From Deltaproteobacteria bacterium (GTDB lineage Bacteria; Desulfobacterota; B13-G15; RBG-16-54-18), in the NCBI GenBank assembly GCA_016927065.1, contig JAFGNJ010000020.1:10923-74922 (forward strand): a DNA stretch of 64,000 bases. The letters run 5' to 3'. The translations under genes and the position numbers were made by a program. Positions 2-45,773 of the stretch are shown piece after piece. The notes beneath the pieces are model-generated. The model had not been told where the DNA came from and did not search any database. It saw nothing but the letters and a program-made list of their open reading frames with translations. The stretch's first letter is position 1. The number at the start of each line of letters is the position of its first letter.

Positions 2-1372
2 GAGCGCATCCCTGAACGGGTGGTGCACGCCAAGGGGGCGGGGGCACACGGTTACTTTGAGGTCACCGCTGACGTCACAAAGTACACCAAGGCGAAGTTT
101 CTCTCCGAGGTCGGGAAACGCACCGAGGTATTTGCCCGGTTCTCTACTGTCGGCGGCGAAAAAGGATCGGCCGATGCCGAACGTGATCCGCGCGGATTTG
201 CGCTGAAGTTTTATACCGAGGAGGGCAATTACGACATGACGGGGAACAATACCCCTGTCTTCTTTATCCGGGACCCGCTGAAGTTCCCCGATTTCATTCA
301 CACACAGAAACGCAACCCCGGCACGAACCTGAAAGACGCAGACATGTTCTGGGATTTCCTCTCACTGACTCCGGAGTCGGTACATCAAGTGACGGTCCTC
401 TTTTCCGATCGCGGCACCCCGAGGACATACCGCCACATGAACGGCTACAGCAGCCACACGTACAAGTGGTACAACACGAAGGGGAATTATTTCTGGGTGC
501 AGTATCATTTTAAAACAGAGCAGGGCATCCAGAATCTCACCCTCGCGGAATCCACCAAGATGAAGGGCGAAGACCCCGACCATGCCACGCGGGATCTGTT
601 CCAGGCCATCGACCGGAAGGAATTCCCCTCTTGGCGGCTGGAAATGCAGATCATGACCCCTGAGCAGGCGGCGGACTATCGTTTTGATCCGTTCGATATC
701 ACCAAGGTCTGGTTCCACGCGGATGTTCCACCCATTACAATAGGCCGCATGGTGCTCGACCGTAACCCGGAAAACTACTTCGCCGAGGTCGAGCAAGCGG
801 CGTTCTCCCCGGCTAACTTTGTCCCCGGGATCGCTGCATCACCTGACAAGATGCTCCAGGGGCGCCTCTTTTCATACCACGACACCCATATCCATCGGTT
901 GGGGCCCAATTATCATCTCCTGCCCATCAACCGGCCAAAAGCAGCGCTGAATTACTATCAGCGTGACGGGTTTATGAATTTTAGCGACAACGGCGGAGAT
1001 AGCCCGAACTATTATCCCAACAGCTTCGGTGGCCCTGAACCCGACCCTGATGTCGGTGAACCGCCATTTGAGGTTTCCGGACAGGCGGCGCGTCATCCTT
1101 ATGCCCATCCCAACGACGACTTCTTCCAGGCCGGGGAACTCTATCGCCGGGTGATGACAGATGAGGATCGCGATCATCTTATTGGCAACATCACCTTACA
1201 CCTGGGTAACGCACAGAAACGCATTCAGTTGCGCCAGGCTGCCGTTTTCTATAAGGCTGATCCTGAGTATGGGAGTCGCGTTGCCGAAGGATTGAAGCTT
1301 GATACCAAAGAGGTGAAGCGCCTGGCGGAGATGTCTCAAGAGGATCGGGCCAAAGCAACCCAAGGAACGTGA
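2..1372 (+). CDS. Monofunctional heme catalase, 5'-truncated by the window edge. The reading frame is open from base 2.
   Basis: The translation carries catalase hallmarks ([30 protein letters not shown]-like start, and the heme distal/proximal regions). The ORF runs to the window start without a start codon. Confidence 0.9.
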
Positions 1373-1464
1373 TTGAACATGCAACAACGTTTTTGCGAGA
1401 CGATGGCTAACAAACTACACCAATAACTTGAAGCGCTAGATATAACCTAACAAGGGGGACGAGT

Positions 1465-1974
1465 ATGGACACGAAAATCTTTCGCAAGATCAGCTACGGC
1501 GTCTACATCGTGACTTCGAGAGATGAAGATCGCATCAACGGACAAACAGCCAATGCGGTGATGCAGGTGTGTTCAAGGCCATCTCTGGTCGCCATCGCCA
1601 TAAACAAGGAGAATCTCACCCATGAGTTCATAACAAAAAGCGGCGTATTTTGCGTCTCGATCCTCTCACAGGATGCCCCCCTGAATCTCATCGGGGGATT
1701 CGGATTCAAGTCAGGGAGAGAGGTGGACAAATTTGACGGCATTCCCTATCGTCTGGGAGCGAATGGCTGTCCCATTATTGCAGAGCACACCGTCGGCTAT
1801 CTAGAGGGAACGGTAACGGGAAAACTCGATGCAGGGACACACACCATCTTTCTGGGGGAGGTAACGGAAGGGAAGCTCCTTAATGACGGAGAGCCGATGA
1901 CCTATGCCTATTACCACCAGGTGAAGCGGGGGACCACACCCGAGACGGCCCCCACCTATATTAGAAAAGAATAA
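1465..1974 (+). CDS. Flavin reductase-like domain protein (FMN-binding split barrel), a possible rubredoxin reductase partner
   Basis: 169 aa with a flavin_reduct-like pattern (VYIVTSRDEDRINGQTANAVMQV...). It sits immediately upstream of the rubredoxin-ROO pair. Confidence 0.65.
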   Translation: MDTKIFRKISYGVYIVTSRDEDRINGQTANAVMQVCSRPSLVAIAINKENLTHEFITKSGVFCVSILSQDAPLNLIGGFGFKSGREVDKFDGIPYRLGANGCPIIAEHTVGYLEGTVTGKLDAGTHTIFLGEVTEGKLLNDGEPMTYAYYHQVKRGTTPETAPTYIRKE

Positions 1975-2001
1975 AGAAACAAAAATAAGGAGGGAGAGAA
2001 C

Positions 2002-2163
2002 ATGAAAAAGTACAAGTGTACGGTATGCGGTTATATCTATGATCCTGAAGCGGGAGATGAGGACGGCGGGATCGCTCCGGGAACCCCCTTTGAGGATATT
2101 CCGGACGATTGGGTCTGCCCGGTGTGTGGGGCGAGCAAGGACCAGTTCGAGCCTGAGGAATAG
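2002..2163 (+). CDS. rub: Rubredoxin, 53 aa. It is absent from the ORF track because it is shorter than 60 aa.
   Basis: The translation [53 protein letters not shown] has two CxxCG knuckles. An AGGAGG ribosome-binding site lies 8 nt upstream. Confidence 0.9.
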
Positions 2164-2186
2164 TATAACCGCAACAGAGGAGCGAC

Positions 2187-3287
2187 ATGAAAGTAGAACT
2201 GAAAAAAGGGATCTACTGGGTCGGGGCCATAGACTGGACGATTAGAGATTTCCACGGGTACAGCACTCATAAGGGATCTACCTATAACGCCTATCTCATC
2301 GTGGGTGAAAAGGTGGCTTTGGTGGATACAGTCAAGGCCCCCTTTTTTGAAGAAATGATGGGGCGGATCAGTGAAATCATGCCGCCGGAACGGATAGACT
2401 ACCTGATCGCCAACCACGTGGAGATGGATCATTCGGGCTCTTTACCCCTCTTTAAAAAGGCCCTCCCAAAGGTGGAGGTGTTGTGCAGTCCCAGGGCCAA
2501 GGGGGAATTGAGTCTCCACTATGGCGATGCAATTCCTTTTAAGGTAGTCAAGACAGGGGATATCCTGGATCTCGGGGGGAAAACCTTGACCTTTGTGGAA
2601 ATCCCTATGGTCCACTGGCCGGACTCCATGGCAACCTACGTCAAGGAGGATAAAACGCTCCTGCCCAACGATGCCTTCGGTCAGCACATAGCCTCCGCAG
2701 AGCGGTTTGACGATGAACTGGGATGGGATGCCATCCGCCCTGAGGCGGCGAAGTACTACGCCAACATTGTCATGCCCTACGGCCCACAGGTCCTCAAGGC
2801 CCTGGAAGCATTGCGGGATATCGAGATTGAGGTCATCGGACCGAGCCACGGTGTCATCTGGCGAAAACATATTCCCGAGATCGTAGCGACCTATGAAAAA
2901 TGGGCAAAAGGTGAGACTGAAAAGCGTGCCCTCGTCGTCTACGATACCATGTGGGGATCTACGGAGAAGATGGCACAGGCCATCAACCGGGGGGTTATGG
3001 AGGAAGGGGTGTCGACCAAGTTGTACCGGCTACGCGTCTCGGATAATTCAGACATCGTCCAAGAGCTCCTGGAGAGCCGGGGCCTTGTACTCGGTTCCCC
3101 CACATTAAACAATGGCCTCTTCCCCTCAGTGGCAGAGTTCTCCTGCTATATCAAGGGACTCCGTCCCAAGGGGAGGCTAGCCGCGGTCTTCGGCTCATAC
3201 GGCTGGGGTAAGGGTGCAGCGACCAAGGCCCTCACGACGGACCTCCAGGCCGCGGGTATGGAGGTGATGGAAGAGCTGCAAGTATAA
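2187..3287 (+). CDS. roo: Flavodiiron protein (rubredoxin:oxygen oxidoreductase, ROO/FprA type)
   Basis: An N-terminal metallo-beta-lactamase-like diiron domain (HVEMDHSG) is followed by a C-terminal flavodoxin-like domain. It is directly downstream of rubredoxin. Confidence 0.85.
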   Translation: MKVELKKGIYWVGAIDWTIRDFHGYSTHKGSTYNAYLIVGEKVALVDTVKAPFFEEMMGRISEIMPPERIDYLIANHVEMDHSGSLPLFKKALPKVEVLCSPRAKGELSLHYGDAIPFKVVKTGDILDLGGKTLTFVEIPMVHWPDSMATYVKEDKTLLPNDAFGQHIASAERFDDELGWDAIRPEAAKYYANIVMPYGPQVLKALEALRDIEIEVIGPSHGVIWRKHIPEIVATYEKWAKGETEKRALVVYDTMWGSTEKMAQAINRGVMEEGVSTKLYRLRVSDNSDIVQELLESRGLVLGSPTLNNGLFPSVAEFSCYIKGLRPKGRLAAVFGSYGWGKGAATKALTTDLQAAGMEVMEELQV

Positions 3288-3378
3288 TTCGTCCCCCATG
3301 AGGATGCCCTAAAGCACTGCGAGGAATTGGGCCGCCGTGTGGCACAAAGGATACAACAATCGTAACAAGGAGAGGAAC

Positions 3379-3618
3379 ATGGACATTAAGATATTTACGA
3401 CACCGACGTGACCCTTCTGTCACAAGGCGAAGGAGTTCCTTTCACAACAGGGAGTGAGTTATGAGGAACGTGATGTTACCCAGGACGCGCAGGCCCGGGA
3501 CGAGATGGTTGAGCTTTCGGGCAGGATGGCCGTACCGGTGATCGTCATCGATGGAGAAGTCATCGTAGGTTTTGATCAAAAGACAATTGAGGAAAAATTA
3601 CGAGCACCAGAAAAATAG
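3379..3618 (+). CDS. Glutaredoxin/NrdH-like small redoxin with an in-frame TGA at 3409-3411, read as a putative selenocysteine (active site T-P-T-U-P-F-C)
   Basis: ATG 3379 is preceded by an AAGGAGAGG ribosome-binding site. The translation is MDIKIFTTPT-(TGA)-PFCHKAKEFLSQQGVSYEERDVT...VPVIVIDGEVIVGFD..., a glutaredoxin fold with Sec in place of the first Cys of CPYC. A possible 5-bp stem-loop lies at 3413-3433. Confidence 0.6.
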
Positions 3619-3655
3619 GACGATCCTTGGCTAGAATTAAAGACCGAAGGACACA

Positions 3656-4576
3656 TTGAATACGCACGAGCTCATTATAGTAGGGGCAGGACCGGCAGGC
3701 ATAACCGCTGGGGTCTATGCCGCGCGGAAGCGCATGAAGGTTCTGATGATCGCCGTGGATGTCGGCGGGCAGGCATCGCTAAGCTGGGATGTCGAGAATT
3801 ACCTCGGTTACCAATTCATTACCGGCCCGGAACTTGCCCAGAAATTTAAGGAGCACCTTGATCATTTTGATGTGGAGTTGAGGGAGGGCGAGAAGGCGAC
3901 ATCAGTAGAAAAATCGGGTAACACCGTGAACATCACAACAGATAAGGGGGAATATGCCGCGCAGACGGTAATCGTTGCTTCGGGAAGGAGACCCAGGAAG
4001 CTCGGGGTAGAGGGTGAGGATGAATTTCAGAACAAAGGAATCACATACTGTGCGACCTGTGACGCCCCGCTGTTCGCAGACATGGATGTTGCCGTCATCG
4101 GTGGAGGTAATGCGGCCCTCGATGCCGCAATACAATTAACAAAAATTGCGAAAAAGATATACCTCTTAGAAGTAAAGCCCCAATTGACGGCAGACAGCGT
4201 AATGATAGAAAAGGCCAAGGAAAGCGGCAAGATAGTCTTTAACACCGACACAAAAGTGAAGAAGATCTACGGGGATAAGCTTGTTCAGGGCATAGAAATA
4301 GTCAAGGGTGATACGGTGGAAGATCTCTCTGTCGGCGGCATCTTTGTCGAGATAGGCTCAACACCCGTATCCGATTTCGTCCAAGGGGTAAAGAAAGATG
4401 AGAGGGGAGAAATAATAATCAATTGCAGCTGTGAAACCGATATCCCCGGGATCTTCGCTGCCGGTGATGTCACCAATGTCTTTGCCAAACAGATTATTGT
4501 GGCCTGTGGCGAGGGGGCAAAGGCAGCAATTGCAGCCTTTGATTATGTGAATCGAATGGGAGGAAAAGCAGCATGA
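3656..4576 (+). CDS. trxB: Thioredoxin-disulfide reductase-like FAD/NAD(P) oxidoreductase
   Basis: It has a GxGxxG motif at the N-terminus, a CATC redox-active motif (CATCDAPLF) and a second dinucleotide fold (VIGGGNAALD). A TTG start follows a GAAGGA ribosome-binding site. Confidence 0.7.
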   Translation: MNTHELIIVGAGPAGITAGVYAARKRMKVLMIAVDVGGQASLSWDVENYLGYQFITGPELAQKFKEHLDHFDVELREGEKATSVEKSGNTVNITTDKGEYAAQTVIVASGRRPRKLGVEGEDEFQNKGITYCATCDAPLFADMDVAVIGGGNAALDAAIQLTKIAKKIYLLEVKPQLTADSVMIEKAKESGKIVFNTDTKVKKIYGDKLVQGIEIVKGDTVEDLSVGGIFVEIGSTPVSDFVQGVKKDERGEIIINCSCETDIPGIFAAGDVTNVFAKQIIVACGEGAKAAIAAFDYVNRMGGKAA

Positions 4577-4627
4577 CGTATTCCCCATAACGGGGATAGA
4601 TAAAAAACAAATGAAGGAGGAATTATC

Positions 4628-5005
4628 ATGACTGAGAGGCTCCAGGTCTATAAGTGCGAGGTGTGCGGCAACATCGTGGAGGTCCTGCATGAAGGAGTAG
4701 GTGAGCTCGTGTGCTGCGGTCAGCCCATGAAGCTTCTGGAGGCAAATACCGTGGACGCGGCCAAAGAAAAGCATGTGCCGGTGATAGAAAAGACCGCCAC
4801 TGGTGTCAAAGTAAAAGTGGGAAGCGCCCCCCACCCCATGGAGGAAAAGCACTATATCGAATGGATCGAGATCATAGCGGACGGCAAGGCCTACCGCCAA
4901 TTTTTGAAACCGGGGGATGCGCCCGAGGCCACGTTTGACATCCAGGCGAATAAGATCGAGGCTCGCGAGCACTGCAATATACACGGGTTGTGGAAGGCCC
5001 TGTAA
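4628..5005 (+). CDS. dfx: Desulfoferrodoxin (2Fe superoxide reductase)
   Basis: An N-terminal desulforedoxin CxxC...CC centre ([13 protein letters not shown]...CCGQPM) is followed by a C-terminal SOR centre (KHVPVIE ... HYIEWIE). Confidence 0.9.
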
Positions 5006-10615: not shown

Positions 10616-11191
10616 ATGATGAAAAAAAGGGTGCTGTTATTCGTTGCTCTTGCCGTCTGCCTTGTTGCGCTTAATGGTGTACTTGTGGCCGCTGAGGAAT
10701 CGACGATCACTGGCACAGTCCTCGCGCCGATAAAACTTCCCGTTCCCCAAGATCCCACAGCCAAAAACTACCTGGGGCTTACCGAAGAAGGATCGTTCGC
10801 TCTATCGCAGATCAAGGCCCAGGTGGTTATGATTGAAATCTTCAATATGTACTGCAACAACTGTCAGCGGGAGGCACCACGCGTAAATGAGCTCTATCAA
10901 CTGATGAACAAGGATCCAAAGCTAAAGGGGAAGATCAAAATGATAGGAATCGGTGTAGGGAATACCCCCCTTGAGGTCGAGGTATTCAAGAAGACCTACA
11001 AGGTCGCCTTTCCCCTTTTCCCCGACGCGGATTATGCCATCCACAAGATATGCGGCGAGGTGAGGACACCGTATTTCATCGGCGTAAAGATCAAGACAGA
11101 CGGGTCACTCAGAGTTTTTTATACCAAAGAGGGTGGTTTCCAAGACCCCGCCCAATTTCTAAAAATAATAGTTGCTTTATCAGGACTCTAA
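10616..11191 (+). CDS. Secreted thioredoxin-fold (TlpA/ResA-like) thiol-disulfide oxidoreductase
   Basis: It has a signal peptide (MMKKRVLLFVALAVCLVALNG) and a CxxC motif (YCNNCQ) in a redoxin-like context. Confidence 0.5.
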   Translation: MMKKRVLLFVALAVCLVALNGVLVAAEESTITGTVLAPIKLPVPQDPTAKNYLGLTEEGSFALSQIKAQVVMIEIFNMYCNNCQREAPRVNELYQLMNKDPKLKGKIKMIGIGVGNTPLEVEVFKKTYKVAFPLFPDADYAIHKICGEVRTPYFIGVKIKTDGSLRVFYTKEGGFQDPAQFLKIIVALSGL

Positions 11192-11204
11192 GGAGGGCTA
11201 CATC

Positions 11205-11813
11205 ATGCTGCAGAGAAAAAGAATCTATGGCGAACTTGCCATAGGCGCCATTGCCGCCATGTGCTTGGTAACGATGGCCTACGGGGGTTCAGCTACGTTA
11301 AAGGAGAATGTCTACGATGTAGGGGCACTGAAACCTATCGACAGTGTACCCAAGCTCCAGGTCGGAGACAAGGCCCCGGAATTCACCCTCCCCGCGGTCT
11401 CCGGGAAAACGGTGGCACTCGCCCAGTACCGAGACACAAAGAATGTGGTCATCTCATTTGTCCCGGCGGCCTGGACGCCGGTCTGTTCGGAACAGTGGCC
11501 GGGCTACAACATCGCCAAGCCCATCTTTGACCAATATGACGCACAATTGATCGGGATCACCGTGGACAACGTCCCCACGCTCTACGCGTGGACCCATCAG
11601 ATGGGGGGGCTGTGGTTTCCTGCCCTCTCCGACTTTTGGCCCCATGGGGCGGTGGCGGATCAGTACGGTATCTTGCGCTCCGATGGAACATCGGAGCGCG
11701 CCCTCTTCGTCATCGACAAACAGGGGATCATCCGGTACATCGATGTGCACGACATCAACAAAAGGCCGCCTCTCGATGACCTCGTCAGAGAGTTGGAGGA
11801 GCTAAAGAAATAG
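11205..11813 (+). CDS. Peroxiredoxin (AhpC/TSA family) with an N-terminal hydrophobic segment, probably periplasmic
   Basis: It has the FVPAAWTPVCSEQ peroxidatic-Cys motif. The start was moved from 11172 to ATG 11205, which follows an AGGAGG ribosome-binding site. Confidence 0.8.
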   Translation: MLQRKRIYGELAIGAIAAMCLVTMAYGGSATLKENVYDVGALKPIDSVPKLQVGDKAPEFTLPAVSGKTVALAQYRDTKNVVISFVPAAWTPVCSEQWPGYNIAKPIFDQYDAQLIGITVDNVPTLYAWTHQMGGLWFPALSDFWPHGAVADQYGILRSDGTSERALFVIDKQGIIRYIDVHDINKRPPLDDLVRELEELKK

Positions 11814-13914: not shown

Positions 13915-16900
13915 TTACTGGGGCTTCCCCATGTGTACGAGGACCCGATGTTTGATAAAGTCCCGATCCAGTGGGATCACCCTATCCCGTACACGCCGAC
14001 CGTCCAGCTCCACCCACGCAACGCCCCGCTCATAGCCTTCCGGGTTCTCGACCCTGATCTCGTATATCGCTTCGCCGTGACGATAGCGCAGGCTGAAACC
14101 CTCCCACCAGCCGGGGATGACCGGATTTACCTGCATGCGATCCCCCCGCACCTGCAAGCCCAGGATCTCTTCAACCCAGGCTCGGTACATCCACGCAGAG
14201 GCACCCGTATACCACGACCAACCACCGTGACCGATCCTCCCGGGCAATCGGTATACATCAGCCGCGATCACGTAGGGCTCGATCCCGTAGCGCCAGACTG
14301 TTTCCGGATCACGCGCCCGCTCGATCGGGTTAAGCATGCGCATCATTTTCACCGCACGCTCACCATCCCCTCGACGCGCCATGGCCATGGCGAACCACAG
14401 GGCGGCGTGAGTGTACTGGCCTCCGTTCTCGCGCACCCCCGGCGGGTACCCCTTGATGTAGCCGGGTGACGGCTCCGATTTGTCGAAAGGAGGTTCGAGG
14501 AGCAGCACGAGACCTTCATCCTCGCGAACGAGATGTCTCCATGCCGATTCCAAGGCACTCTTTGCACGATCCGTGTCGGCGGCGCCGCTCAGCCACGCCC
14601 AGGATTGGGGCAGGGAATCGATCTTCGCCTCTTCATTCGCCGAAGAGCCAAGCGGCGTGCCATCGTCGAAGATCGCCCGCAGATACCATTCCCCATCCCA
14701 GGCTTTTTGTTCGACAAGCTTAATCAGCGCCTTCCGTTTTTGCTGATAGGTCTTACGCAGATCCGGCCGATCCAGGAGGTCAGCCATCTCGACCATGCCC
14801 TGCAGCACATCCGCCAGGAACCACGCCAGCCACACGCTCTCCCCTTTGCCCCCGGCACCCACAAGGTTCATCCCATCGTTCCAGTCTCCCGTTCCCATCA
14901 GGGGCAACCCGGTGGGCCCAACAGTCAGCCCGCGCGAGACCGCTCGCTCGCAGTGCTCAAACAGCGTACCGCGTTCCCGCGCGATCTCCGGTGTGGAGAG
15001 GGCTTCTCGCTGATCTGCTTCCAACAGAGGAGCGTTGAGGAAGGGAACCGTCGTATGCAGGATGCCCACATCACCGGTGATCCTGATGTAGTGAGCGACG
15101 ACGTAGGGAAGCCATAGGGGATCATCGGAGATCCGCGAGCGGATACCTGCGCCGTTCGGTGGATGCCACCAGTGCTGGACATCGCCTTCCTTGAACTGGC
15201 GGCTCGCCGCAAACAGGATGTGCTCTCGCGCCAGGTCGGGATACGCGTAGACGAAAGCCATGACGTCCTGCAATTGATCGCGGAAGCCGAACGCGCCGCC
15301 GGGCTGGTAAAAGGCGGAACGCCCCCAGATCCGGCAGCTCAGACTTTGGTACAGCAACCAGCGGTTGATGAGGAAGTCCGCTGCGAGCTCGGGGGTATGG
15401 ACTTCGATCGTGCCCAACAGGTCATCCCACCAGGCTTTCATTTTGCTTAGAGAGGTTTCGAACGCCGAGCTTTTCCGGTAGGTTTGAACCAGCTTATGGA
15501 CCTCCTCCGCTGATCCGGCCTGGCCCACCATGCACGTAATCTCAACCTTCTCACCGGGAGCCAGTTCGACCCTGACCTGCAGCGCGGCACAGGGGTCCAA
15601 TCCCGCTCCCGTCCGCAGTGAAAGCCTGATCCGCTCCATCGCCACGGGGTTCGCCATCGAGCGATTGCGCCCCAGGAAGGATGTGCGGTCGCCGTTGTAT
15701 GACTCCACAGGCGGGCTGATGGCCGCGAAGGCCACACGATCCCCATACTCGGGGTGGTAACGATTTCTGGCAAGCAGGGCCTGCGCTTCGTCATCCCAGG
15801 TGGTCACGACGTGCATCTGAGAAGACTCACGGTTCTCCCCCAGTGTCCACTCTACGTAATACGTAACAGACAGTTTGCGATGCCGAGCGGAGTCGTTTCT
15901 CAGCCGCAGCCGCTGCAGTTTGATCGGCTCTCCCCCTTGCTCGTCTACGGGAACGAAGACCAAGAGCTCCTGCTCGATCCCATTGCTATTATGCTCGAAT
16001 GCCGTGTACCCTGCCCCGTGCCGTGTCCGATAGGGGGTCTTTTCGCGGATCGGCGTCGGGGTCGGTGTCCAGTAGACACCGCTCTCCTCATCCCGAATGT
16101 ACAACGCCTCAGACGGTGGATCCATCACGGAGTCGTTCGACCATGGCGTCAGGCGATTGCGCTGGCTGTTGCCATACCAGGTAAAGCCGGCCCCTGTTTC
16201 GCTGAGTACTGTTCCGAAAGTCGGGTTGGCGATGACGTTTACCCAGGGCGCGGGCGTGTGGGTGTCTGGTCCGAAATAGATTGCGTATTCACGCCCGTCC
16301 GGGGTAAACCCACCCAGGCTATTGAAGTAGGGTAATTCCAGGAAGGGCAGCGCAGGCGAAGGCTCCCGGGGGGCACGCTTCTTGACCATGGGTTCCGGCA
16401 TCTCGGGAGCCTCCGCAGGCATACCCAATTGCTGGGGCAATGTGCCGCGGGCCGCCACCAACTCCACACTCGCCGCTGCCCTGAGCAGCGTCAGATCTTC
16501 CTCAGGCATAAGATCAGCGCTACGCACGTAGACACCACCAGACTGATCGATCCCCGCGTGCATCGCATGCGTCTGGATGAGGTGCTCGAGTCGTTCGCGC
16601 AGGGGCTGTTCATAACCGCTCGCTTCCTCATTGAGGATCACTAAGTCTGCCATTAATCCGTGATTATGCCAATAGGCATGCGCCTGGAGCATTTGACGAA
16701 CCAGGGTGATGTCCTGCGCTTCACCGATGGTGACCAGGGCGATCGGCACGTCGCCCGAGATTCCGTAGGGCCACAATCCGGCTTGGCCCTTGCAATTCTT
16801 TTCGATGCATTCAATGGGAGGCCGCAGGCTGGGATTGGGAAACAGCAAGTGGCTTGTCAGCTGCTGGAAGCGGCGGGCCTCGTCGGGCTGGATACGAAGC

Positions 16901-19900
16901 AGCCGCAACTCGAGTTGGGCGGAGGCCCAGGCGACATCCATCGCCCGATCGATCGGAGGGAGTTCTCCGTACTTGTCCATCAGTCTCAAGACCTGCTGGC
17001 GTGTTTCGCCGGCGGCGATAACTAGGGAAACCTGGATGCGCCGGCCCGGACCGAGAGTCACGCTCCGCCGCAGGCTGAGGATCGGGTCGAGAACAAAACC
17101 CTGGTTGCTACCGAGCTCTTGAAAGACACCCATGGGACTGGCGAGCGTCCTCCCGCGTCCGATGAACCGCCGCCGGTCGGTATCGAACTGCAAGGCGTTA
17201 TCCTCGACTTGTTCGAGCGTGAAGCGGTGCGCAATATAGATGGGCGGGTCGTCATCTCCGCGAGGCCTGCGGCACGCGAGAAGCGCCTGATATTCGGGCA
17301 CCGCTTCGGTCTGGATGAACAGCTTGTTAAAGGCCGGATGCTGCCGGTCAGCGTTGTGCGGCGCCATTGAGAGTTCGACGTAGCTTGTGAGCTCGAGGCG
17401 GCGGGTGCGAACGGACCGGTTGATCAGAGTGATCCGCCGGATCTCAACGTCATCTTCCGGCGAGACGATGACCTCGGTTTCGGTTTGAATGCCGCTATCG
17501 GTGCGTCGGAACACGGCACGATCGAGCGCAAAGTTGGCGGAATACGCCTCGACCTTCCCGCCGGTTGGATGATACGTATTGGACCACAAACGATCCGAAT
17601 CGGCTTCATGGATATAGCAGAAGGTTCCCCACGGATCCCGCGTCCGATCAGATCTCCAGCGGGTAATCTCATAGTCTCTCCACCGGCTGTACCCGCCGCC
17701 GGCGTTCGTGAGCATCAGGTTATAGCTACCATTACTCAGCAGTTGGGTTTTGGGTGTAGCGGTGTGTGGCGTATCGAATTTGCTCACTGACGGCACCACT
17801 TCGCCGACGTCCGTCACCGAAGGCGCCCTCTCACGGGTGGTGATGTGGTGGAGCGGAGGAAGGACAGGGATGCGTTCATGGAGCAATGGCTCGACCGCAC
17901 GCACGCGTGCGTCGGCATGAAAACGGCGTTGGATGATATTACCATGGATGAAGTTGGTCAGCGACAGAAAACTCATTCCTTGATGATTAGTCATATACGC
18001 TCGTACCATCACCCCGCGCTCGCCCGGGCGGCCCGGCTGCCGGCTGAAGTCCATCGCTTCGTAATAGCCGTAATCGTTCAAAAGCCCCAACTTAGCTAAG
18101 CGTTTCAGATTCTGCACGGTCTCTCTCGGTGCTATATTCACCGCCAGAAGAGTAGCATAGGGTGCTACGACAACCTCCTCCAAGCCGCGTTTTAATCCGA
18201 GCTCCGGCACACCGAACGCCTTGTATTGATACGTCTTGTTGATGTCCAGGTCTCCAAAGGCGGACTCCGAGATCCCCCACGGCACATGGAGCTTGCGACC
18301 GTAGGCGATGTGGATCGCCACAGCTTCCCGTGTTGCTTTATCCAGGAGTGAATTCCAGTACGTTTTTTGTAAAATGAGCGGCATGAGATATTCGAACATG
18401 CTTCCTGTCCAGCTGAGCAGCACCCGGTGCCGGCCGATCGCGCCGTAGGGCCGGCTCATTGAGAACCAATGCTCAGCGGAGACGTCACCGCGCGCAATGG
18501 CGACAAAACTCCCAAGCCGCGCCTCACTCGCCAGGAGATCGTAATAGGCGCTATCCAAGCGCCCGTCGGAAACATTGTAGCCGACGGAGAACAACCGGCG
18601 TTCGGAGTCATACAGGAAGGGCATGTTGATCGATTCGGACAGTTCGCGTCCATCCTGGACCAGGCGCTCGCCCAAAGCAAGCATTTCACCCGCCAACCAT
18701 TGCGCCTTTGCAAAGGCCTGCAGAAGGCGGCTAATCCACTCGAAGAGGGGGCCTGTTTCCGAGGGAGAAAAGTCCCGAATCGATTGCAGGGTCTGTATAC
18801 AGCCTATATGCCCTTTGGCGAGATCGCGAAGCGACGGCGCGTGATACAGATTCTCGCGCAACGCGAGCACGGCCTCCCTGCCCAGCAAGGCGATCTCATC
18901 TTCCGCTTTTTCATCAATGATTTCGATCCAGGCGAGGTAGCGATCCACAATCTCGCGCCAGGCCAATACCTGTTTCTCCATCTGCCCGGCCCAATAGGCC
19001 GCACGCGATTCACCTCCGGTTTCACCGTCTGTTTCACCTCGGGTTCCCCCTCCGGGTTCCCCAGAGGGTCCGCCGGAGGCGGACTTACGTTTCTTACGGT
19101 AAAGACCTTTTATGCTGTCTTCTAGTTGCCGCAGCAGGCGCAGCGCATCGGCGATGCGATCCGGTGGATTTTCACAACTACGCATCAGTTCGTCAAGGCG
19201 GCGGGCATTGAGAGCGGAAACGCCTTCCTCTTCGACGACCTGCTTCAAGATTTCACCGGTGTCCCGCAGACCTGCAAAGGCTTTCGCATCCAGCATGGGG
19301 TCTTGCATCAAGTCGTCAAGACCTTGCTCCAGGGCCCAGAGGGCGCCAAGCAGGTTTCCACTGTCCACCATGGATACGTAGCGAGGTTCGAGAGGGGTCA
19401 GGGTTTTAATATCGTACCAATTCAACAGATGACCCTCATAGCGCTCGAGTTTGCCGATCGTCTCCATAGTACGCGTCAACTTTTCGATGGCCTGATCCAT
19501 CGTCAGATATCCGAAATCATGGGCGGCGAGCGCGCTGACCATCCAGAAACCGATGTTGGTTGGACTGGTACGCATCGCTAGTTGATTCTTATGGGAGAAC
19601 TGGTAATTGTCCGGCGGAAGCCAAGAGGTGTTTTCTCCGACAAAATCAGAGAAATACCGCCAGGTTCGTCGTGCAACCTTTCTCAGGAACCGCACATCCT
19701 TTTCGGGAAACAGTAATCGCTGTGACCTCGCGTGCGGTCTGAGGGTCAAGAGCCAACCGATCAGAGGGGATAAGAACCACAATACGAGCCAGGGACCGGC
19801 CAGGAAAATGTTCGACGGCATCCAGCGCTGCACCGCCCAACCCATGATCACGCTGAAGATGCTCGCTAGGCCCAGCAACATCACGAACGTCTGCACTCGA

Positions 19901-22900
19901 TCCGGGGCATTTCCATGCATCACCTGGGTTGACGTCCACTCGAGCAACCCTCGATGAGAGATAAGACGACGATACCAGACCCGCAGAATGGCATCCATCG
20001 CCAGCCAGGCCTGGCGCGGAAGCAGTGCAGCTTCGACAATCGCCCGCAGCAGGTCGTGCGCCAATCGTAAGAAGGAAAAGCCCCGTGGCCCCTGGCCGGT
20101 GGTCGCCCATATGAAGGGCTGAACTAAGGGGTGAAAGAGCAGCTGCATGGCGACCACAACGGCAGATATCCACACCATCTCAGAGGAAGTCAGCCAGGAC
20201 GCTATCAGTAAGCCCAGACTGGTCGCAGGTACCAGGCTACGGCGCAAGTTGTCGAAGACCTTCCAGCGGTCGAACCAGGAGAGCGGGTTTGGTCCTCGGC
20301 CTCCTCCGGGCAGGGGAACGCGCGGCAAAATCCAATCCGCAATTTGCCAATCACCGCGAATCCAACGATGCTGCCGGCTGGTGTAGCTCATGTAATCCTG
20401 CGGGAACTCATCATAGAGCTCGATATCACTGGCGAGGCCCACGCGAACATGAGCACCTTCGATCAAATCATGACTGAGCAATTGCTCTTCGGGAAACGTG
20501 CCGGAAAGCACTCGACTGAAGACACGCACGTCATAGATGCCTTTGCCATGATAGGAGCCTTCGCCAGTGAGATCCTGATTGACGTCGGAAACAGCCTTGG
20601 TATAGGGGTCGATTCCGATTGGGTCCGAGAAGAGCCGGCTGAATGGCGTGGCGCTCGTACTCGGCAGGGAGGGGCTCACGCGCGGTTGGATGATCGCATA
20701 GGAGCCGGCCAGGATGCCACCTTTGTCATCGAAGCGCGGCAGGTTGAGCGGGTGGGCCAGGGTTTCAACCATCCTGCGGGCGGTGTCGTGCGGTAGCTGC
20801 GTGTCGCTGTCCAACGTGATGACAAATCTCACATCGGACAGGCGATCCGGGTCGCCGACGTACACCAACCGATTGGCATCTTCAGGCCGCGTTCCATCAA
20901 TCAGACGATTGAGTTCTTCCAGTTTCCCGCGTTTACGCTCCCACCCGATAAATTTCTGTTCGGATTCACTCCATTTTCGCTCTCGATGGAAAAGGGAAAA
21001 ACGTTCGCCGCCATACCGGTTATTGAGGGCTTCGATGCTTTCGATCGTCGCTTGGAGCAGGTGTTCGTCCTCCTCGCCATGCGCTTGCTTTGAATCCGCA
21101 TAATCCGAGAAGAGGCCAAAGAATACATTGTTTTCTTTGTTAGTGAGATATCTGAGCTCGAGCTTTTCCGCCTCGGCCCGGATAGTCTCCGCATCAACCA
21201 ACAGCATGGGCACAACGACGAGCGTTCGAAATTCATCAGGAATCCCCGAGTCCTCGAAATTCATCTTCGGAAGCGTGCGCGGCGGAAGTAACTGCGTGAC
21301 CAGGTAATTCACAACCTCGAGCGAAAGCTGGCTAATCGGAATCAGCAAAAGAAGCGCTAGCAAAAGCCGGATCACGGGTGTCTGCCCGCGCATACCAAGC
21401 AAAACGATCAGGGAGATGAATACCGCGGTAAAAAAGCCGAGCCCAAGAAAGTACACTGCAGCATGATGGCGGTAGACCCATTGCACAACGCGGAACCGGG
21501 GCGCCTCGCGACATCGTATGAGCTGCGCCAGCTCGTGTCTTCCTTCTCCAACCAGATATGTCCCGACATGGATACGCCGTTCATCCTTCACCCCTTTATG
21601 GGCCGCGCGCGTCGCTAGGTCAATGGCGCGCTGGGCGACTCGTTCTTCCGCCTGGCCTGACCTGCGGGCGAGTTCTTCAATCGTCCTACGATACCGATCT
21701 CGCGTGTCGAAATCCATCCGGGGATAGACTCCCGAAGGGTCCATCCGAAGCAACTGCTCCACTCGACTGATCTGTTCGAATATCTTCCTCCAATCCAACA
21801 GGGCGAGTTGTCGCAAACTGGTGAACGCATTCCCGATCGATATCTGATCCTTCATCTGGCGGTTTTGCTCACGAAGGTTGAGATCGCCCAGGGATTTTCG
21901 AAACATACGCTCGAGCCATGCCTTGACCGGCACCAGCGCGGCTTCTTGATCGTAGAGGTTATCGATCAGTTGAAGACTGAAATAGGGACTCGGCTTGGGT
22001 TGCGATTCGGCAAGTTCGGCAAGGATCGAAAGGATTGAGAAAGGCTGGTTGGGGTCTCGCCGATTGGCCGTAATGAGCCTGTTTGCCCAGAAGTCGGCAA
22101 TCTCACGTTCTCGCAGCTCTGTCAGGGCTCTTTCGGCGAGATACAAGAGGCCCTCGACCAATGCCGCGCGCAGCATCTGGGGGACGGCCCAGAGTTCGCC
22201 AATCGACAATGGGCCGACTGATTGATAGGCCTTGATGAACGCGAGGATGTTCTCCCTATCCAGACGCAAGTCCGCATGTGAGACCAGTTCCCGTGCGAGG
22301 CCGTAGATGCGCGGCAGACCACGGTAGGGCCCGCTGGCCAGTGCCGGCAGCTCCTGGTAATAGCGCCGGGGAAGGTTCAACTGCACTTCGCGCACGTTAC
22401 TCTCGATGATGTACTCATTGTCGAGGAGCCACTCGGTGGTTGGAGGCGTACTCTGACCCAGTCGACTCGCTTCGGACAGATCCAGGCAAACACGATGGAT
22501 CCATCGCCGGGTTTGTTCGAGCCACTTGAGCAGTTTGATGTTCCGCCGGGGATTCGTGCTCACCTGATGGTCCTTGGCGAGGCGCTCAGCATACTCCTGG
22601 ATCTGTACCCCAGAGAGCGGACTCTCGAGGCTCGCCGCCTCTCCGATGAAATCCTCTCGCTTCGGATGCAGAAAAAATATGGCGGGCGGGATCTCGTCGC
22701 TTTCCTGCAACACTGCCATGGGGGAGCGCAATGTTTCGATCGGTGCCCGGAGAATCAGGACGGTCTCCTCGGATACCAACCAGCGCGCATGATCCTCGAG
22801 CAGCCTTCGTTCGACGCCGAACCTCGATCGTCGTATCCATGCCACACTGAAGAAGATTCCGGCGATCCCACCCGCAAGGCCCGGAATCAGGGTAGACAGG

Positions 22901-23157
22901 CTTCCAAACGGAATCGGCACCGACCACTGAAGGCTCATAGCGGCAGCCCCAGCGATGAAGCCGCAGAGGAAGAAACCCGCGGCCACTCCAAAGGCCCGGA
23001 GCCGCAGGAAGGGATCTCGAGTTTGGATATGTCCATCCGCTGTCTTGCTCATCAAGGCAACGCGCCGGAAACCCCTCCGCTGCAACCCCTTGAGGGCCCT
23101 GCGAGCCGCATCCTGTTTTGCGAAGTAGCCTATGAGAATGCCTGCTCTCACGTCCAT
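13915..23157 (-). CDS. ndvB: Cyclic beta-1,2-glucan synthase-like giant protein (GT84 glycosyltransferase region plus GH94 glycoside phosphorylase region), 3080 aa
   Basis: A GT2-like core ([19 protein letters not shown]) is flanked by TM segments. The C-terminal half has GH94 signatures ([33 protein letters not shown]). Confidence 0.75.
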   Translation of the reverse strand: [3080 protein letters not shown]

Positions 23158-36815: not shown

Positions 36816-37181
36816 ATGACTAGACCTTCTCATAAGGAAATACACGGAAAGATAAGGAAAGCAAGAGAGTTAGTATCAGATGGTTATTTTGCTGTAATAG
36901 AACCAGACAGTATTGCTGCTGATGCATTAGAGTTAGGCTATTTAATAGAGGACCTTCCAAATATTCCTTCTGAGATTTTAATTGAAGTAAAAGCCGAAAA
37001 TTATGTCGGCGATCAACCTCCACAGCGTTCCTATGAGAAACAAATTATAGATTGTGAGCTCTTTGCATTTAGATGGGCAAGCAAACGATTTGGTTGTGAA
37101 ATCTATGTAAAGTTTACACTCAAGGATAACACAATGTGGCTTGTGTCCTTGCATGAACATAGGGAGAAGGAGGATGAATAA
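36816..37181 (+). CDS. mqsR: MqsR-like toxin (predicted ribosome-independent mRNA interferase, RelE/MqsR fold)
   Basis: A 121-aa protein whose pattern matches E. coli MqsR as recalled from memory (KARELVSDGYFAV..ADALELGY ... YVKFTLKDNTMWLVSLHEHREK versus MqsR ...ALLNADELGLDF ... YLKITVIHDVLIVSFKEK). It is in a low-GC island, and its stop overlaps the antitoxin start. Confidence 0.55.
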   Translation: MTRPSHKEIHGKIRKARELVSDGYFAVIEPDSIAADALELGYLIEDLPNIPSEILIEVKAENYVGDQPPQRSYEKQIIDCELFAFRWASKRFGCEIYVKFTLKDNTMWLVSLHEHREKEDE

Positions 37182-37998
37182 AATTATAAATGAAATGATA
37201 AACTGCCCGAACGGGCATGGTGAAATGCAAATTACTAGAGTAGAGAAAAAACTGAAGTTCCGTGGTGTGGATATAACTTTTCAGACAGAACATTACTTGT
37301 GCTCAGTTTGTGGTATAGAAGTAGGCTCCATCGAACAAGCATCAGTTACTCAGCGAGTAATTTCCGACGCGTATCGCAAAGCGGTTGGTCTACTGACGAG
37401 CGAGGAGATTCGTGGAGGCAGAAAGAAATTAGGCCTAACGCAAGCCGATCTTGCGCAGCATATGTGTGTTGGTATCGCCAGTCTAAAGAGGTGGGAGGGG
37501 GGAATAATTCAGACTAAGTCAATGGATAGGGCACTTCGAAACGTTCTTCAAGGCCAAGTATTTAGCGATGTTTACACAGGAAATCGATCATTTTCAATTC
37601 CAAGAGTAAAACTTGTTTTAAGAGAATTTGAGTTATCATTACAGAGAAAAATTCTGCAAGATGATAAAGGACTCTTCTCAGCTAAGTATTTATGGTACGC
37701 GGATATGGTAGCTTTCCGGGAGTTAGGTGAGAGTATGACTGGATCAACTTATGCTCGCCTTCCTCTCGGTCCCCAACTTAATAATTATCGAGACCTGATT
37801 GATGCCATAAAAGAAGCTGATGAAAGCGATGCGGAACCTCTTACGTCAGAGGAAAAAAAGATAATCTCCAAAATTTCAATGGTTTTCCCTAAGGATAAGA
37901 TGGTTTTTGATGTTTCCCATAGAGAAGTAATCGTGCAAAAAAAAGCAATTGGAAACATAATTCCATATTTGGATGCGGCAGAATTGACTGGGTTATGA
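37174..37998 (+). CDS. mqsA: MqsA-like antitoxin (N-terminal YgiT-type zinc ribbon plus HTH_XRE) extended by a C-terminal Panacea/DUF4065-like domain
   Basis: It has a CPNGHGEM...CSVCG zinc ribbon, an HTH (LGLTQADLAQHMCVGIASLKRWEGG) and a C-terminal region (KYLWYADMVAFRELGESMTGSTYARLPLGPQ) typical of Panacea domains. ATG 37174 is preceded by GGAGAAGGAGG. Confidence 0.55.
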   Translation: MNKIINEMINCPNGHGEMQITRVEKKLKFRGVDITFQTEHYLCSVCGIEVGSIEQASVTQRVISDAYRKAVGLLTSEEIRGGRKKLGLTQADLAQHMCVGIASLKRWEGGIIQTKSMDRALRNVLQGQVFSDVYTGNRSFSIPRVKLVLREFELSLQRKILQDDKGLFSAKYLWYADMVAFRELGESMTGSTYARLPLGPQLNNYRDLIDAIKEADESDAEPLTSEEKKIISKISMVFPKDKMVFDVSHREVIVQKKAIGNIIPYLDAAELTGL

Positions 37999-41760: not shown

Positions 41761-42810
41761 CTACTTTTCAAATAATTTCAAAAACTCTTCATATCCTTCT
41801 TTTCCCAGATCCGCAACAGGGATAAACCGCAGCGCGGCGGAGTTGATGCAATAGCGAAGACCGGTCGGCGCAGGGCCGTCAGAAAAGACATGGCCAAGGT
41901 GTGAATCCGCGTTCTTACTTCTCACCTCTGTCCTCACCATCAGCAGCGACCTATCCTTTTTTTCAACGATATTCTCCGGCACCAGAGGCCTGGTAAAACT
42001 CGGCCACCCGGTTCCGGAGTCGAATTTATCCTGTGAGCTGAAGAGCGGCTCACCTGAAACAATATCGACATAGATCCCCGCTTTTTTGTTGTCCCAGTAT
42101 TCGTTGTCAAATGGCCTCTCAGTGCCGTTTTCTTGCGTGACATGGTATTGCAAAGGCGTCAGTCTCTTTTTTAATGCGCTTATATCCTTTTCCCCCTTTG
42201 TGCCCCAGATCTTTGCTAAAAATTGATCTCGGCCGGAACCGTTTCTATACAACTGATAGTGCGATGGATTTTTCTTGTAATAATCCTGGTGATATTCTTC
42301 AGCCTTATAAAACGTCGAAGCGCGAATGATGGGGGTAACAATCGGCTTATCGAAGAGCTTTTTCTTTTCCAAGGCCCGTTTTGATTCCTCAGCCAAGCGC
42401 TTTTGCTCGTTATCAAAATAAAAGATGGCTGTCGAATACGCCTTGCCTCTATCAGCGAATTGGCCGCCGGGATCAGTTGGATCTATCTGCTGCCAAAATA
42501 CCTCCAACAGCTGAGTATAGGTGATGTTCTGGGGATCATATACAATTTCCACGGCCTCACTATGGCCCCCTGAGGCGTAATCTTTATATGTGGGATTTTT
42601 ACTTGTACCGCCCGTGTAACCGGATGTAACTGAAACTACGCCTTCTAATTCTTCAAATGATTTTTCCATGCACCAAAAACAGCCCCCCGCAAACAGGGCC
42701 TTTTTGAGCTTTGATGTATCTTGCGCATGGGTGATGCTACCGAGTAATAACGGAAAAAGAAACATTGCAATTGCAGCTATATACTCCAGTTGTATATTCA
42801 TATTCTTCAT
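41761..42810 (-). CDS. msrAB: Secreted bifunctional peptide-methionine sulfoxide reductase MsrA-MsrB fusion
   Basis: An MsrA GCFWC motif ([12 protein letters not shown]) and an MsrB C-terminal domain ([11 protein letters not shown]) with an N-terminal signal peptide. Confidence 0.85.
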
Positions 42811-43014
42811 GTCGCACCTCACTCCTTGTAATTTTAGTATTAATTAAAATATAAGCACGAAATGGTCTAAACGAAGAAAAAAGATCGGTCCGAGTGGAGA
42901 ACCCCCCACTTTCCTCACATAGTAATTCCTGGTTGACAGAGGAATAGCAGCAGGATATCTTCGGGTACTGTAGCTCAGTATTGCAAAAAGTCAAAAAAGC
43001 AAGGAATCGCCTAA

Positions 43015-44652: not shown

Positions 44653-45186
44653 TTAATGTTCTGTAATCTTTTCAAGCTCTTTGTCCAAAAGACGATCAAA
44701 TTCTTCGTCCACAAGCTGCATCTTCACCTGAACAACTTCAGAATTGTTCATCGATACTTCATGTATGATCTCTGACAACCTGTGGCGAGCCTGTTCTACG
44801 AAAACTCGCACGACACCAATTTTTACCTCATTGCCGAAGGCCACACTCAAAATGACCACATCAGCCACACTAGTAGAAAAGATGCTGTAATCTTCCGTTT
44901 CATGCAAAAGATTGATAAAGGGTGTCTTTTTAGCTAAAAGCTTAATAAACTCCACACTCGCTGCATGGCTGCCGGCGATCAGAGCCGCGAGGGCTTCGGC
45001 CTTTTTTGCGTCGATGTGGCCTCGAGATACAATCAGTTGTCCGGTGGTGTCGGTCAGCAGTATGGTTGGTGCCCCTGTGCTGCCAACCAATTCATCAAGA
45101 CACGCATCGACTTTTTCCATCTGTTCGGTGCTGAACTGGGCGGCATCAGGAATGGCAAAATCATAACAGGATGAGGACATAATCAT
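44653..45186 (-). CDS. Second Roadblock/LC7-like protein (longer, 177 aa; MglB/MglC-like)
   Basis: Roadblock-like core (APTILLTDTTGQLIVSRGHID...AALIAGSHAAS). Confidence 0.5.
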   Translation of the reverse strand: MIMSSSCYDFAIPDAAQFSTEQMEKVDACLDELVGSTGAPTILLTDTTGQLIVSRGHIDAKKAEALAALIAGSHAASVEFIKLLAKKTPFINLLHETEDYSIFSTSVADVVILSVAFGNEVKIGVVRVFVEQARHRLSEIIHEVSMNNSEVVQVKMQLVDEEFDRLLDKELEKITEH

Positions 45187-45197
45187 TTCCTTTAGAA

Positions 45198-45773
45198 TTA
45201 CATTTTTCTCTGGGTGACCTGAGTAATGATGGCCTTCATGGTATCAAATACGCTCTTGCCCTCCGTCGCGATCGCTCCGAAACGGGGCTGCCCATTTAAG
45301 CCCAGCCGCTTGCTCAGCTCATCAGGAGCAGTAGCAGACGAAAGATCCTGTTTGTTACATTGCAGGACAAAGGGAAACTCGCTCAGGGAACTCCCTTTCT
45401 CTTTAAGATATCCTCCCAACTCGGTCAGACTTTCGATATTCTCTTTTAGCCTATCTTCCTGCGAATCGGCAACAAAAACCACTCCGTCAACCCCCCGCAG
45501 TACTAATCTGCGACTGGCAGTATACATCGGTTGGCCAGGGACCGTATAAAAATTAAATTTTGGTTTTAGACCGTTGATCGTTGTCAATTCAATATACAAA
45601 AAATCAAAGAAAAGGGTGCGATCCCCTTCCGTCTTAACAGAGACCAATTCCCCCCGCAGCTGAGGGTTGATGTGATCGTGAATAAATTCAACGTTTGTGG
45701 TCTTGCCACCGCCACCCACGCCGTAGTAGACGACCTTGAAACTAATCTCTCCTCGTTGATGATTAATAAGCAC
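45198..45773 (-). CDS. mglA: MglA-family small Ras-like GTPase
   Basis: P-loop GVGGGGKTT and the MglA-typical TVPGQ motif in place of the Ras DxxGQ. 191 aa. Confidence 0.7.
   Translation of the reverse strand: MLINHQRGEISFKVVYYGVGGGGKTTNVEFIHDHINPQLRGELVSVKTEGDRTLFFDFLYIELTTINGLKPKFNFYTVPGQPMYTASRRLVLRGVDGVVFVADSQEDRLKENIESLTELGGYLKEKGSSLSEFPFVLQCNKQDLSSATAPDELSKRLGLNGQPRFGAIATEGKSVFDTMKAIITQVTQRKM

Follow-up and report, generated by a model that had tools for sequence, protein, structure and literature searches.

Small redoxins of the thioredoxin fold in which selenocysteine (Sec) replaces the first Cys of the CxxC active site, and for which Cys-type homologues exist, form a known family of prokaryotic selenoproteins. 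In a review of the prokaryotic selenoproteome (2026), glutaredoxin (PF00462, UxxC) is listed among the experimentally verified selenoproteins, with reference to Kim et al. 2011 (Mol Microbiol), and the UXX-star families are entered as computationally predicted selenoproteins (PMC13188914). Sec-containing glutaredoxins (Sec-Grx) had been recorded in earlier surveys in Geobacter sulfurreducens, Alkaliphilus and Moorella, and also among Olavius symbiont sequences. A related relay has been described in clostridia: in Clostridium pasteurianum, the YruB protein Cp9 shuttles electrons from the NADH-dependent, thioredoxin reductase (TrxR)-like protein Cp34 to the peroxiredoxin Cp20, and in both C. pasteurianum and C. 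novyi, Cp9 is encoded between Cp34 and Cp20 (PMC3720550). Here, we describe a locus of this kind in a 64-kb stretch of a Deltaproteobacteria (Desulfobacterota) metagenome-assembled genome (GenBank assembly GCA_016927065.1, contig JAFGNJ010000020.1, positions 10 923–74 922), hereinafter the window. Positions 3379–3618 of the window (+ strand) very probably represent a genuine Sec-decoded gene for a 79-residue, YruB/Cp9-type 'Uxx-star' glutaredoxin-like protein, which adds a well-supported Sec-redoxin to the oxygen-defence cluster of an anaerobe.

In its general features, the gene conforms to the Sec-Grx/Uxx-star family, including the predicted Sec at the first position of UxxC and a hairpin of the selenocysteine insertion sequence (SECIS) type located within the open reading frame (ORF) shortly after the UGA. 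Sec-glutaredoxins, Cp9-type relays and SECIS hairpins within bacterial ORFs are all established, so that the locus represents neither a new kind of selenoprotein nor a new mechanism. It does differ from the characterised Clostridium Sec-Grx, which is paired with a Sec-containing methionine sulfoxide reductase (MsrA), in that it comes from another lineage, lies beside an AhpF-like reductase in a cluster for defence against oxygen and reactive oxygen species, and encodes a protein whose reductant is probably a flavoprotein rather than glutathione (GSH). The window also encodes an MsrA-MsrB fusion protein (41764–42822, − strand) which, unlike in the Clostridium case, is not a selenoprotein: it has the Cys form of the active site (GCFWC) and an apparent signal peptide.

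A glutaredoxin-like reading frame with an internal UGA

Direct reading and translation yield a frame that extends from ATG 3379–3381 to TAG 3616–3618, with an internal TGA at 3409–3411. The start codon is preceded, with a 6-nucleotide (nt) spacer, by the Shine-Dalgarno sequence AAGGAG (3367–3372, + strand). The conceptual 79-residue product is MDIKIFTTPT-U-PFCHKAKEFLSQQGVSYEERDVTQDAQARDEMVELSGRMAVPVIVIDGEVIVGFDQKTIEEKLRAPEK, its part after U starting with PFCHKAKEFLSQQGVSYEERDVT and ending with VPVIVIDGEVIVGFDQKTIEEKLRAPEK. The in-frame UGA (3409–3411, + strand), the predicted Sec codon, takes the place of the nucleophilic N-terminal residue in the CxxC motif (U11-P-F-C14); Cys-type homologues have an invariant Cys11 in the same alignment column, which makes a Sec/Cys pair. 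The 368-nt gap between the stop codon of the flavodiiron protein gene and the next called gene is thus not empty, as had been proposed in a first-pass annotation made by a model from the DNA letters; the ribosome-binding site upstream of ATG 3379, the U-P-F-C reading of the active site and the in-frame continuation of the glutaredoxin fold, all noted there, are indeed present. That annotation also had called the gene unannotated, which is correct for the full-length form, absent from GenBank, but not for its tail: the GenBank record contains the 54-residue C-terminal piece alone, as 'hypothetical protein JXA50_08505' (MBN1255298.1). This 'hypothetical protein' is very probably the tail of a 79-residue selenoprotein, the full-length form of which is missing from the public annotation and is restored here.

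The protein with U replaced by C covers the complete Pfam Glutaredoxin model PF00462 (residues 3–62 matching model positions 1–60 of 60; E 3.9e-25; 88.3 bits against a cut-off of 22.9 bits). It also scores above the curated cut-offs of two more specific models, namely, TIGR02196, 'glutaredoxin-like protein, YruB-family' (GlrX_YruB; 95.4 versus 88.55 bits; residues 3–74 matching model positions 2–73 of 74), and NF041212, 'Uxx-star family glutaredoxin-like (seleno)protein' (80.5 versus 66 bits). These family profiles, together with the Sec/Cys pair and the conservation of the UGA and of the hairpin described below, bear out the identification of the locus as a gene for a Sec-containing glutaredoxin/NrdH-like protein.

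The family assignment also bears on how such a protein would function, because a real Sec-glutaredoxin might be a classical GSH-dependent or NrdH-type redoxin that does not work with the neighbouring reductase. Such a role would agree with the identity of the best-scoring solved structures, which include the glutaredoxins 7c10, 7c12 and 1fov (glutaredoxin 3, E 2e-16) next to the NrdH/Cp9-like thioredoxin BC3987 (3zij), and with the description of the characterised Clostridium Sec-Grx as GSH-linked (PMC13188914). Nevertheless, the glutaredoxin 3 models TIGR02181 (68.2 versus 90 bits) and NF007923 (72 versus 129 bits), the NrdH model TIGR02194 (53.2 versus 85.75 bits) and the mycoredoxin model all score below their cut-offs, whereas the YruB model scores above. 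The window ORFs include no ribonucleotide reductase genes, and there are no nrdIEF genes near the redoxin gene. GSH-binding glutaredoxins carry the C-terminal motif GG-x-DD; the window protein has VGFD instead. Furthermore, a reductase gene is conserved beside both the Sec and the Cys forms of the redoxin. A GSH-dependent or NrdH-type function hence appears unlikely.

Conservation of the UGA and of the codons preceding it

In a protein search with the U-to-C query, all close database relatives (80–88% identity) were present only as fragments of 48–59 residues that begin just past the position of the TGA, and the full-length relatives (50–64% identity) have a CPxC site. The contigs of three fragment groups (L001–L010; metagenomic loci are given by such numbers below) contain the same in-frame TGA, with MD[IV]KIFTT[PQ]T encoded ahead of it and P[FYH]CHKAKEFL behind it; every close orthologue inspected has this TGA with conserved peptide on either side. 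Further relatives were retrieved from metagenome contigs solely by the C-terminal patterns [ED]V[IML]VGFDQ and [ST]GR[MR]AVPVI, so that the outcome could not be biased towards TGA. Among the 78 nearest relatives in which the active-site codon is readable on the contig, it is TGA in 74 and TGT in four, which goes well beyond what chance would produce. The active sites found among the relatives include UPFC, UPYC, UPHC, UPWC, UQSC, URSC, UGPC and USAC. The Sec form thus dominates the YruB/Cp9-like subfamily of the window gene in sediments and soils.

The segment upstream of the TGA is conserved as well. Orthologues from the clade of the window gene (clade A; 14 sequences) share the ATG, and most of them have a motif of the AAGGAG(G) type at the same distance, a few a weaker variant. 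Across the ten codons 5' of the TGA, differences from the window are mostly synonymous (for example, five synonymous and no non-synonymous changes relative to L091 and L095), which indicates that this segment is translated. Translation would accordingly begin at ATG 3379, behind a strong Shine-Dalgarno sequence, with the UGA at 3409–3411 decoded as Sec.

Erroneous sequencing or assembly of a TGC or TGT codon, or reassignment of TGA, are generic possibilities for a metagenome-assembled genome, with nothing specific in their favour here. The Logan assembly of SRR13394437, which may share reads with the GenBank assembly, is 100% identical over window positions 1141–4864 (~3.7 kb), so that the TGA is not an artefact of a single assembly, and the same TGA recurs across samples, in dozens of independent contigs. 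As for reassignment, TGA terminates 19 of the 53 long ORFs in the window, that of the neighbouring reductase included, at points where the Pfam domains are complete; TGA is thus an ordinary stop codon in the window and the code is not reassigned. The probability of an error or a reassigned codon can be considered negligible.

A large soil-type clade of Sec forms (L109–L170, from samples that appear to be soil; for example, L117, 770–960) is characterised by the active-site region TVYW[ST][ST]T-U-QSC-HAAKEFLSS and has the same SECIS hairpin, GCGAAAGAGUUUCUUUCGU.

A SECIS-type hairpin within the reading frame

The model of the bacterial SECIS element (bSECIS) stipulates a loop of 3–9 nt, a stem of 4–16 base pairs (bp), a G at loop position 1 or 2 with G or U after it, a distance of 16–37 nt from the UGA and a minimum free energy (MFE) limit of −7.5 kcal/mol (PMC13188914). 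In 69 unique Sec-type sequences, we found a recurring hairpin, GCGAA(A/G)G-AGUU(U/C)-CUUUCG(C/U), which spans the Ala-Lys-Glu-Phe-Leu-Ser codons. With the U of the UGA numbered 1, the stem comprises positions 19–25/31–37 and the loop positions 26–30; in the window, this corresponds to a predicted SECIS hairpin at 3427–3445 (+ strand), with the family consensus stem at 3427–3433/3439–3445 and the loop at 3434–3438. The RNAalifold consensus is the same helix. Like the bSECIS model, the hairpins of the window and of the family have a loop of 4–5 nt, a stem of 5–9 bp, G followed by U at the second loop position and a spacing of 22 nt from the UGA to the loop; most relatives also meet the energy limit, whereas the hairpin of the window, taken alone, does not.

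Several lines of evidence indicate that the RNA structure itself is maintained. In the gap-free alignment of the 69 Sec-type sequences, 96.8% of the cells in the stem are standard pairs, compared to 52–69% when the 3' partners are slid by 1–3 columns. Four of the seven pairs have changed on both sides somewhere in the alignment; for instance, L101 has U20-A36 and C19-G37 in place of C-G and G-C/U, respectively. The codons within the hairpin are near-fixed in the Sec forms (Ala GCG in 64 of 66, Glu GAG in 67 of 67, Leu CTT in 66 of 68 and Ser TCG in 61 of 64), whereas the flanking codons of the same sequences vary freely, with Cys encoded by TGC in 36 cases and by TGT in 33 and all four Gly codons in use. 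At the same positions, 84 Cys-type homologues, collected by a scan of genome contigs with the peptide pattern carrying Cys and originating from CPR, DPANN, Omnitrophota and other groups, employ mixed codons (Glu GAA 20 and GAG 19; Leu CTT 14 of 51), although this comparison should be read with the caution that the two sets differ in GC content (0.41 versus 0.56) and that many of the Sec sequences are interrelated. The hairpin is absent from the Cys forms, in which the mean MFE of nt 15–42 is −2.2 kcal/mol, as opposed to −9.9 kcal/mol in the Sec forms (Mann-Whitney p = 3e-24). In the window, the hairpin that remains (3429–3442, AGUU loop, ~22 nt past the UGA) would recruit SelB and Sec-tRNA(Sec).

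The first-pass annotation had named a different stem, 3413–3417/3429–3433, as a candidate SECIS element. This stem is the MFE fold of the window sequence, but it is not conserved: across the 69 Sec-type sequences, it is paired in 43% of cells, no better than slid controls, and its 3429–3433 segment is the 5' arm of the conserved hairpin rather than a 3' arm. Judging by ribosome footprints, positions +4 to ~+15 are covered by the ribosome while the UGA occupies the A site, and such a stem would sit inside it. A second hairpin predicted in the window, at ~3436–3467 with the loop AACAGGGA, lacks a G at both loop position 1 and loop position 2.

The weak hairpin of the window and the case for decoding

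Several observations weigh against the decoding of the UGA as Sec in this particular genome. The first concerns the hairpin itself. In the window, the Ser codon is TCA rather than TCG, and the resulting A at position 36 (3444) creates a C3428/A3444 mismatch where 65 of 68 distinct sequences form a C-G pair; in addition, the Gly codon is GGA rather than GGG (A at position 45), which weakens the lower stem seen in clade A. The remaining structure is a 5-bp stem, 3429–3433/3438–3442, closed by an AGUU tetraloop (3434–3437) 22 nt after the UGA, with a free energy of −4.5 kcal/mol for the hairpin alone, compared to −8 to −10 kcal/mol in most relatives. Within contexts of 48–60 nt, the conserved hairpin has a probability of ~0–0.08, other pairings being preferred; when enforced in 48 or 60 nt, it reaches −8.3 or −9.3 kcal/mol, respectively, and is not the MFE structure. 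The near-invariance of the stem leaves few compensatory changes in the family (4 cells), and Rfam yielded no match for the whole window at the gathering thresholds or for positions 3300–3700 at E values up to 10. Profile scans of the ORFs and an ARAGORN search, which found neither a tRNA nor a tRNA-Sec, detected no selA, selB, selC, selD or tRNA-Sec gene in the 64-kb window. Finally, the adjacent gene for the flavodiiron protein (ROO/FprA type; 2187–3287, + strand; Pfam ODP and Flavodoxin_1) ends at a TAA (3285–3287) where four relatives have CAA (ELQV-Q-FVP...), with the same base in the Logan assembly, and the 26 codons that follow (3288–3365) still encode the conserved C-terminus FVPHEDALKHCEELGRRVAQRIQQS up to a stop. 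This TAA looks like a recent nonsense mutation that truncates the flavodoxin domain, and some decay of the locus could have set in; owing to the early stop, the spacer between the ROO gene and the Sec-Grx gene is 91 nt in the window but 14 nt in L172.

One explanation that takes these findings at face value is that the family consists of true selenoproteins but that the SECIS element has degraded in the window and its nearest relatives (L172–174 and L175/176), so that UGA decoding is inefficient or the gene is in the course of being lost or turned into a Cys form. The TCA codon that disrupts a pair kept in 65 of 68 sequences, the low stability of the hairpin and the predicted competing folds speak in its favour. 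However, A36 is shared by L172–174 and L175/176, which were found through the reductase protein and each have ~91% nucleotide identity to the window gene. In these three distinct sequences, the TGA nevertheless persists, the frame is intact and the protein conserved, which implies that the weak variant was inherited and is not a private lesion. L175 carries G21-to-A as well, by which an A-U pair replaces a G-U pair in the short-stem register, and a comparable mismatch is tolerated in L100. The window has kept the upper stem and the AGUU loop intact, and it is to this part of the element that SelB binds in the fdhF hairpin of Escherichia coli. Moreover, the strongest competing stem, 3413–3417/3429–3433, should be unable to form with the UGA in the A site, given what is generally known of ribosome footprints. 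We therefore consider degradation of the SECIS element improbable and the weak hairpin a state that this sub-lineage has inherited and seems to tolerate, with real uncertainty as to the efficiency of decoding.

A more radical alternative is that the TGA is a genuine stop codon, in which case the locus would be a relic or the 54-residue fragment starting at GTG 3454 its only product. It can draw on the fact that gene callers and GenBank give the 54-residue piece alone, on the weak hairpin of the window, on the sel genes not seen in the window and on the nonsense codon in the adjacent ROO gene. Against this, the 54-residue fragment lacks strand beta1 and the entire CxxC site and cannot be a redoxin, and GTG 3454 has no properly spaced Shine-Dalgarno site. 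The conservation of the ATG, of AAGGAG in most orthologues and of the ten pre-TGA codons with mostly synonymous change also speaks against a stop, as does the retention of TGA in 74 of the 78 relatives, which is not expected of a decaying gene. A genuine stop is thus very unlikely, and the UGA presumably specifies insertion of Sec.

The wider neighbourhood in related genomes agrees with Sec decoding by this lineage. In syntenic relatives, a peroxiredoxin gene that is called as two ORFs (83 and 137 codons) is one gene with TGA at the position of the peroxidatic Cys (FYPGDFTFV-U-PTE); it is found in the closest of them, at L008 1481–2194, L001 2807–3520 and L172 730–1443, and also in L002, L003, L009 and L173. 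In L172, L008 and L009, this putative Sec-peroxiredoxin gene lies two genes upstream of the catalase gene, and the equivalent position is just beyond the 5' end of the window. Its presence provides indirect evidence that the lineage may well decode Sec. A screen of all TAA/TAG-bounded frames of the window for further TGA-split genes, with translation of the two most suggestive ones, produced no other selenoprotein candidate.

Gene neighbourhood and a possible peroxide-reducing relay

All genes between positions 20 and 11813 of the window are on the + strand, and they form a cluster in the order catalase, flavin reductase, rubredoxin, flavodiiron protein, Sec-Grx, a 306-residue flavoprotein disulfide reductase and desulfoferrodoxin, followed by the alpha and beta subunits of a 2-oxoacid:ferredoxin oxidoreductase, a DUF255/DsbH-like thioredoxin-domain protein, a nitroreductase, a ResA-like thiol-disulfide oxidoreductase and a peroxiredoxin. 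The desulfoferrodoxin (superoxide reductase; 4628–5005, + strand) scores 225.8 bits with TIGR00320 against a cut-off of 146.9.

The reductase gene (3656–4576, + strand; Pfam Pyr_redox_2, E 1.5e-43) starts 37 nt downstream of the Sec-Grx gene and encodes a protein that is identical (100%) to MBN1255299.1 and resembles the C-terminal half of AhpF and low-molecular-mass thioredoxin reductases. Its best match in the Protein Data Bank is the catalytic core of AhpF (1fl2, E 5e-66), and it aligns over its full length with AhpF residues 212–517, the CATC motif matching the redox-active CPHC of AhpF; with TIGR03140, it scores 306 bits, below the AhpF cut-off of 502.9. The segment IYLLEVKPQLTAD ('LLEVKPQLTAD') aligns with VTLLEFAPEMKAD ('LLEFAPEMKAD') of AhpF. 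The 'LLE...AD' stretch in the pyridine-nucleotide domain of AhpF points to NADH rather than NADPH, and the match suggests that NADH is probably the electron donor of the window reductase as well. As the reductase has no counterpart of the N-terminal redoxin domain of AhpF, a separate small redoxin would be expected as the carrier. Pairing of the redoxin with such a reductase is recurrent: an AhpF/TrxR-like gene lies directly downstream of the redoxin gene in clade-A relatives, in distant Sec forms (L106 and L160) and in Cys forms (L107, L116 and L125). The placement of the Sec-Grx gene next to a TrxR-like flavoprotein gene within an operon for defence against oxygen and reactive oxygen species, remarked upon in the first-pass annotation, is hence borne out, adjacency of the two genes being a repeated feature of both forms.

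These associations invite comparison with two known systems. Like Cp9, which is a redoxin of 75–80 residues with a glutaredoxin-like CP[YW]C-type motif, the window protein belongs to the YruB family by its TIGR02196 score, and its gene similarly is located beside a TrxR/AhpF-like flavoprotein gene in a cluster that includes a rubredoxin gene. Unlike Cp9, however, it has Sec for the first Cys, its gene is upstream of that of the reductase, and the peroxiredoxin gene is not adjacent: in relatives, that gene lies several genes upstream of Sec-Grx and encodes what is itself a selenoprotein. With AhpF/AhpC, the locus would share the logic of electron flow from NADH via a flavoprotein and a thioredoxin-fold carrier to a peroxiredoxin; the difference is that the reductase of the window lacks the N-terminal double thioredoxin-fold domain, which a separate Sec-redoxin would replace.

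On this model, NADH would reduce the FAD and the CATC disulfide of the AhpF-like reductase, the reductase would reduce the selenenylsulfide of Sec-Grx, and Sec-Grx would pass the electrons on to a peroxiredoxin, perhaps also to other thiol proteins in their oxidised state. The gene pairing and the resemblance to the two systems tip the balance slightly towards a role of Sec-Grx as the middle carrier of a peroxide-reducing relay similar to Cp34/Cp9/Cp20, with the neighbouring flavoprotein as its probable reductase, NADH as the likely donor and a peroxiredoxin as the presumed acceptor.

The gene content of the window and of some relatives is at odds with such a relay in several respects. No peroxiredoxin gene is adjacent to Sec-Grx in the window, and the proposed acceptor is not encoded there. 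The window does encode a Cys-type peroxiredoxin of the AhpC/TSA family (11172–11813, + strand; Pfam AhpC-TSA, E 3e-33), a candidate acceptor further along the cluster, but its hydrophobic N-terminus, like a signal peptide or membrane anchor, argues against a role as a cytoplasmic partner. The reductase gene is not always found next to the redoxin gene either: L098 has none beside its grx gene, and in the soil-type clade L109–L170, no AhpF/TrxR-like gene was seen within the 3-kb flanks. In some relatives, a gene for a 493-residue multihaem cytochrome c is inserted between the Sec-Grx and reductase genes (L005 6167–7648, L008 5769–7250 and L177 3940–5421), with spacings of 1–4 nt or an overlap, which hints at a link of the redoxin pair to a haem electron carrier.

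More tentatively, the Sec-peroxiredoxin of the syntenic relatives could be the terminal component of the relay. If so, this group of sediment Desulfobacterota might use selenium twice in peroxide detoxification, with electrons passing from NADH through the AhpF-like reductase, devoid of a carrier domain, and a free-standing Sec-Grx-like carrier to Sec-peroxiredoxin, all three encoded within one conserved oxygen-defence cluster. In the redoxin subfamily, the Sec form rather than the Cys form would then be the norm, the 74 Sec forms among the 78 nearest relatives including the large soil-type clade with its U-Q-S-C site. This scheme, in which two selenoproteins would be driven by a single AhpF-like reductase, is a possibility about which we are more doubtful than about the carrier role of Sec-Grx, but it is a testable suggestion.

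Two further observations concern the ends of the cluster. At its distal end (10616–11813), the genes for the ResA/TlpA-like thiol-disulfide oxidoreductase (CNNC) and the AhpC/TSA peroxiredoxin overlap by 20 nt and both encode proteins with hydrophobic N-termini, which suggests that the two form a thiol peroxidase pair that is exported. In relatives (L001 1126–2335; L005 3460–4690), the oxidative-stress cluster is headed by genes for a Fur-family regulator, possibly PerR-like, and for an Fpg DNA glycosylase; the corresponding region precedes the start of the window.

Other genes of the window

Elsewhere in the window, a single ORF of 3080 codons (13915–23157, − strand) combines GH94 supersandwich and catalytic domains with a glucoamylase-like domain, and its product could represent a cyclic beta-1,2-glucan synthase or a phosphorylase-type giant protein. 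A gene at 37141–37998 (+ strand) joins MqsA-antitoxin and SocA/Panacea domains in one protein, and at 44653–45773 (− strand), genes for a Roadblock/LC7-domain protein and an Arf-like small GTPase form an MglB/MglA-like pair.

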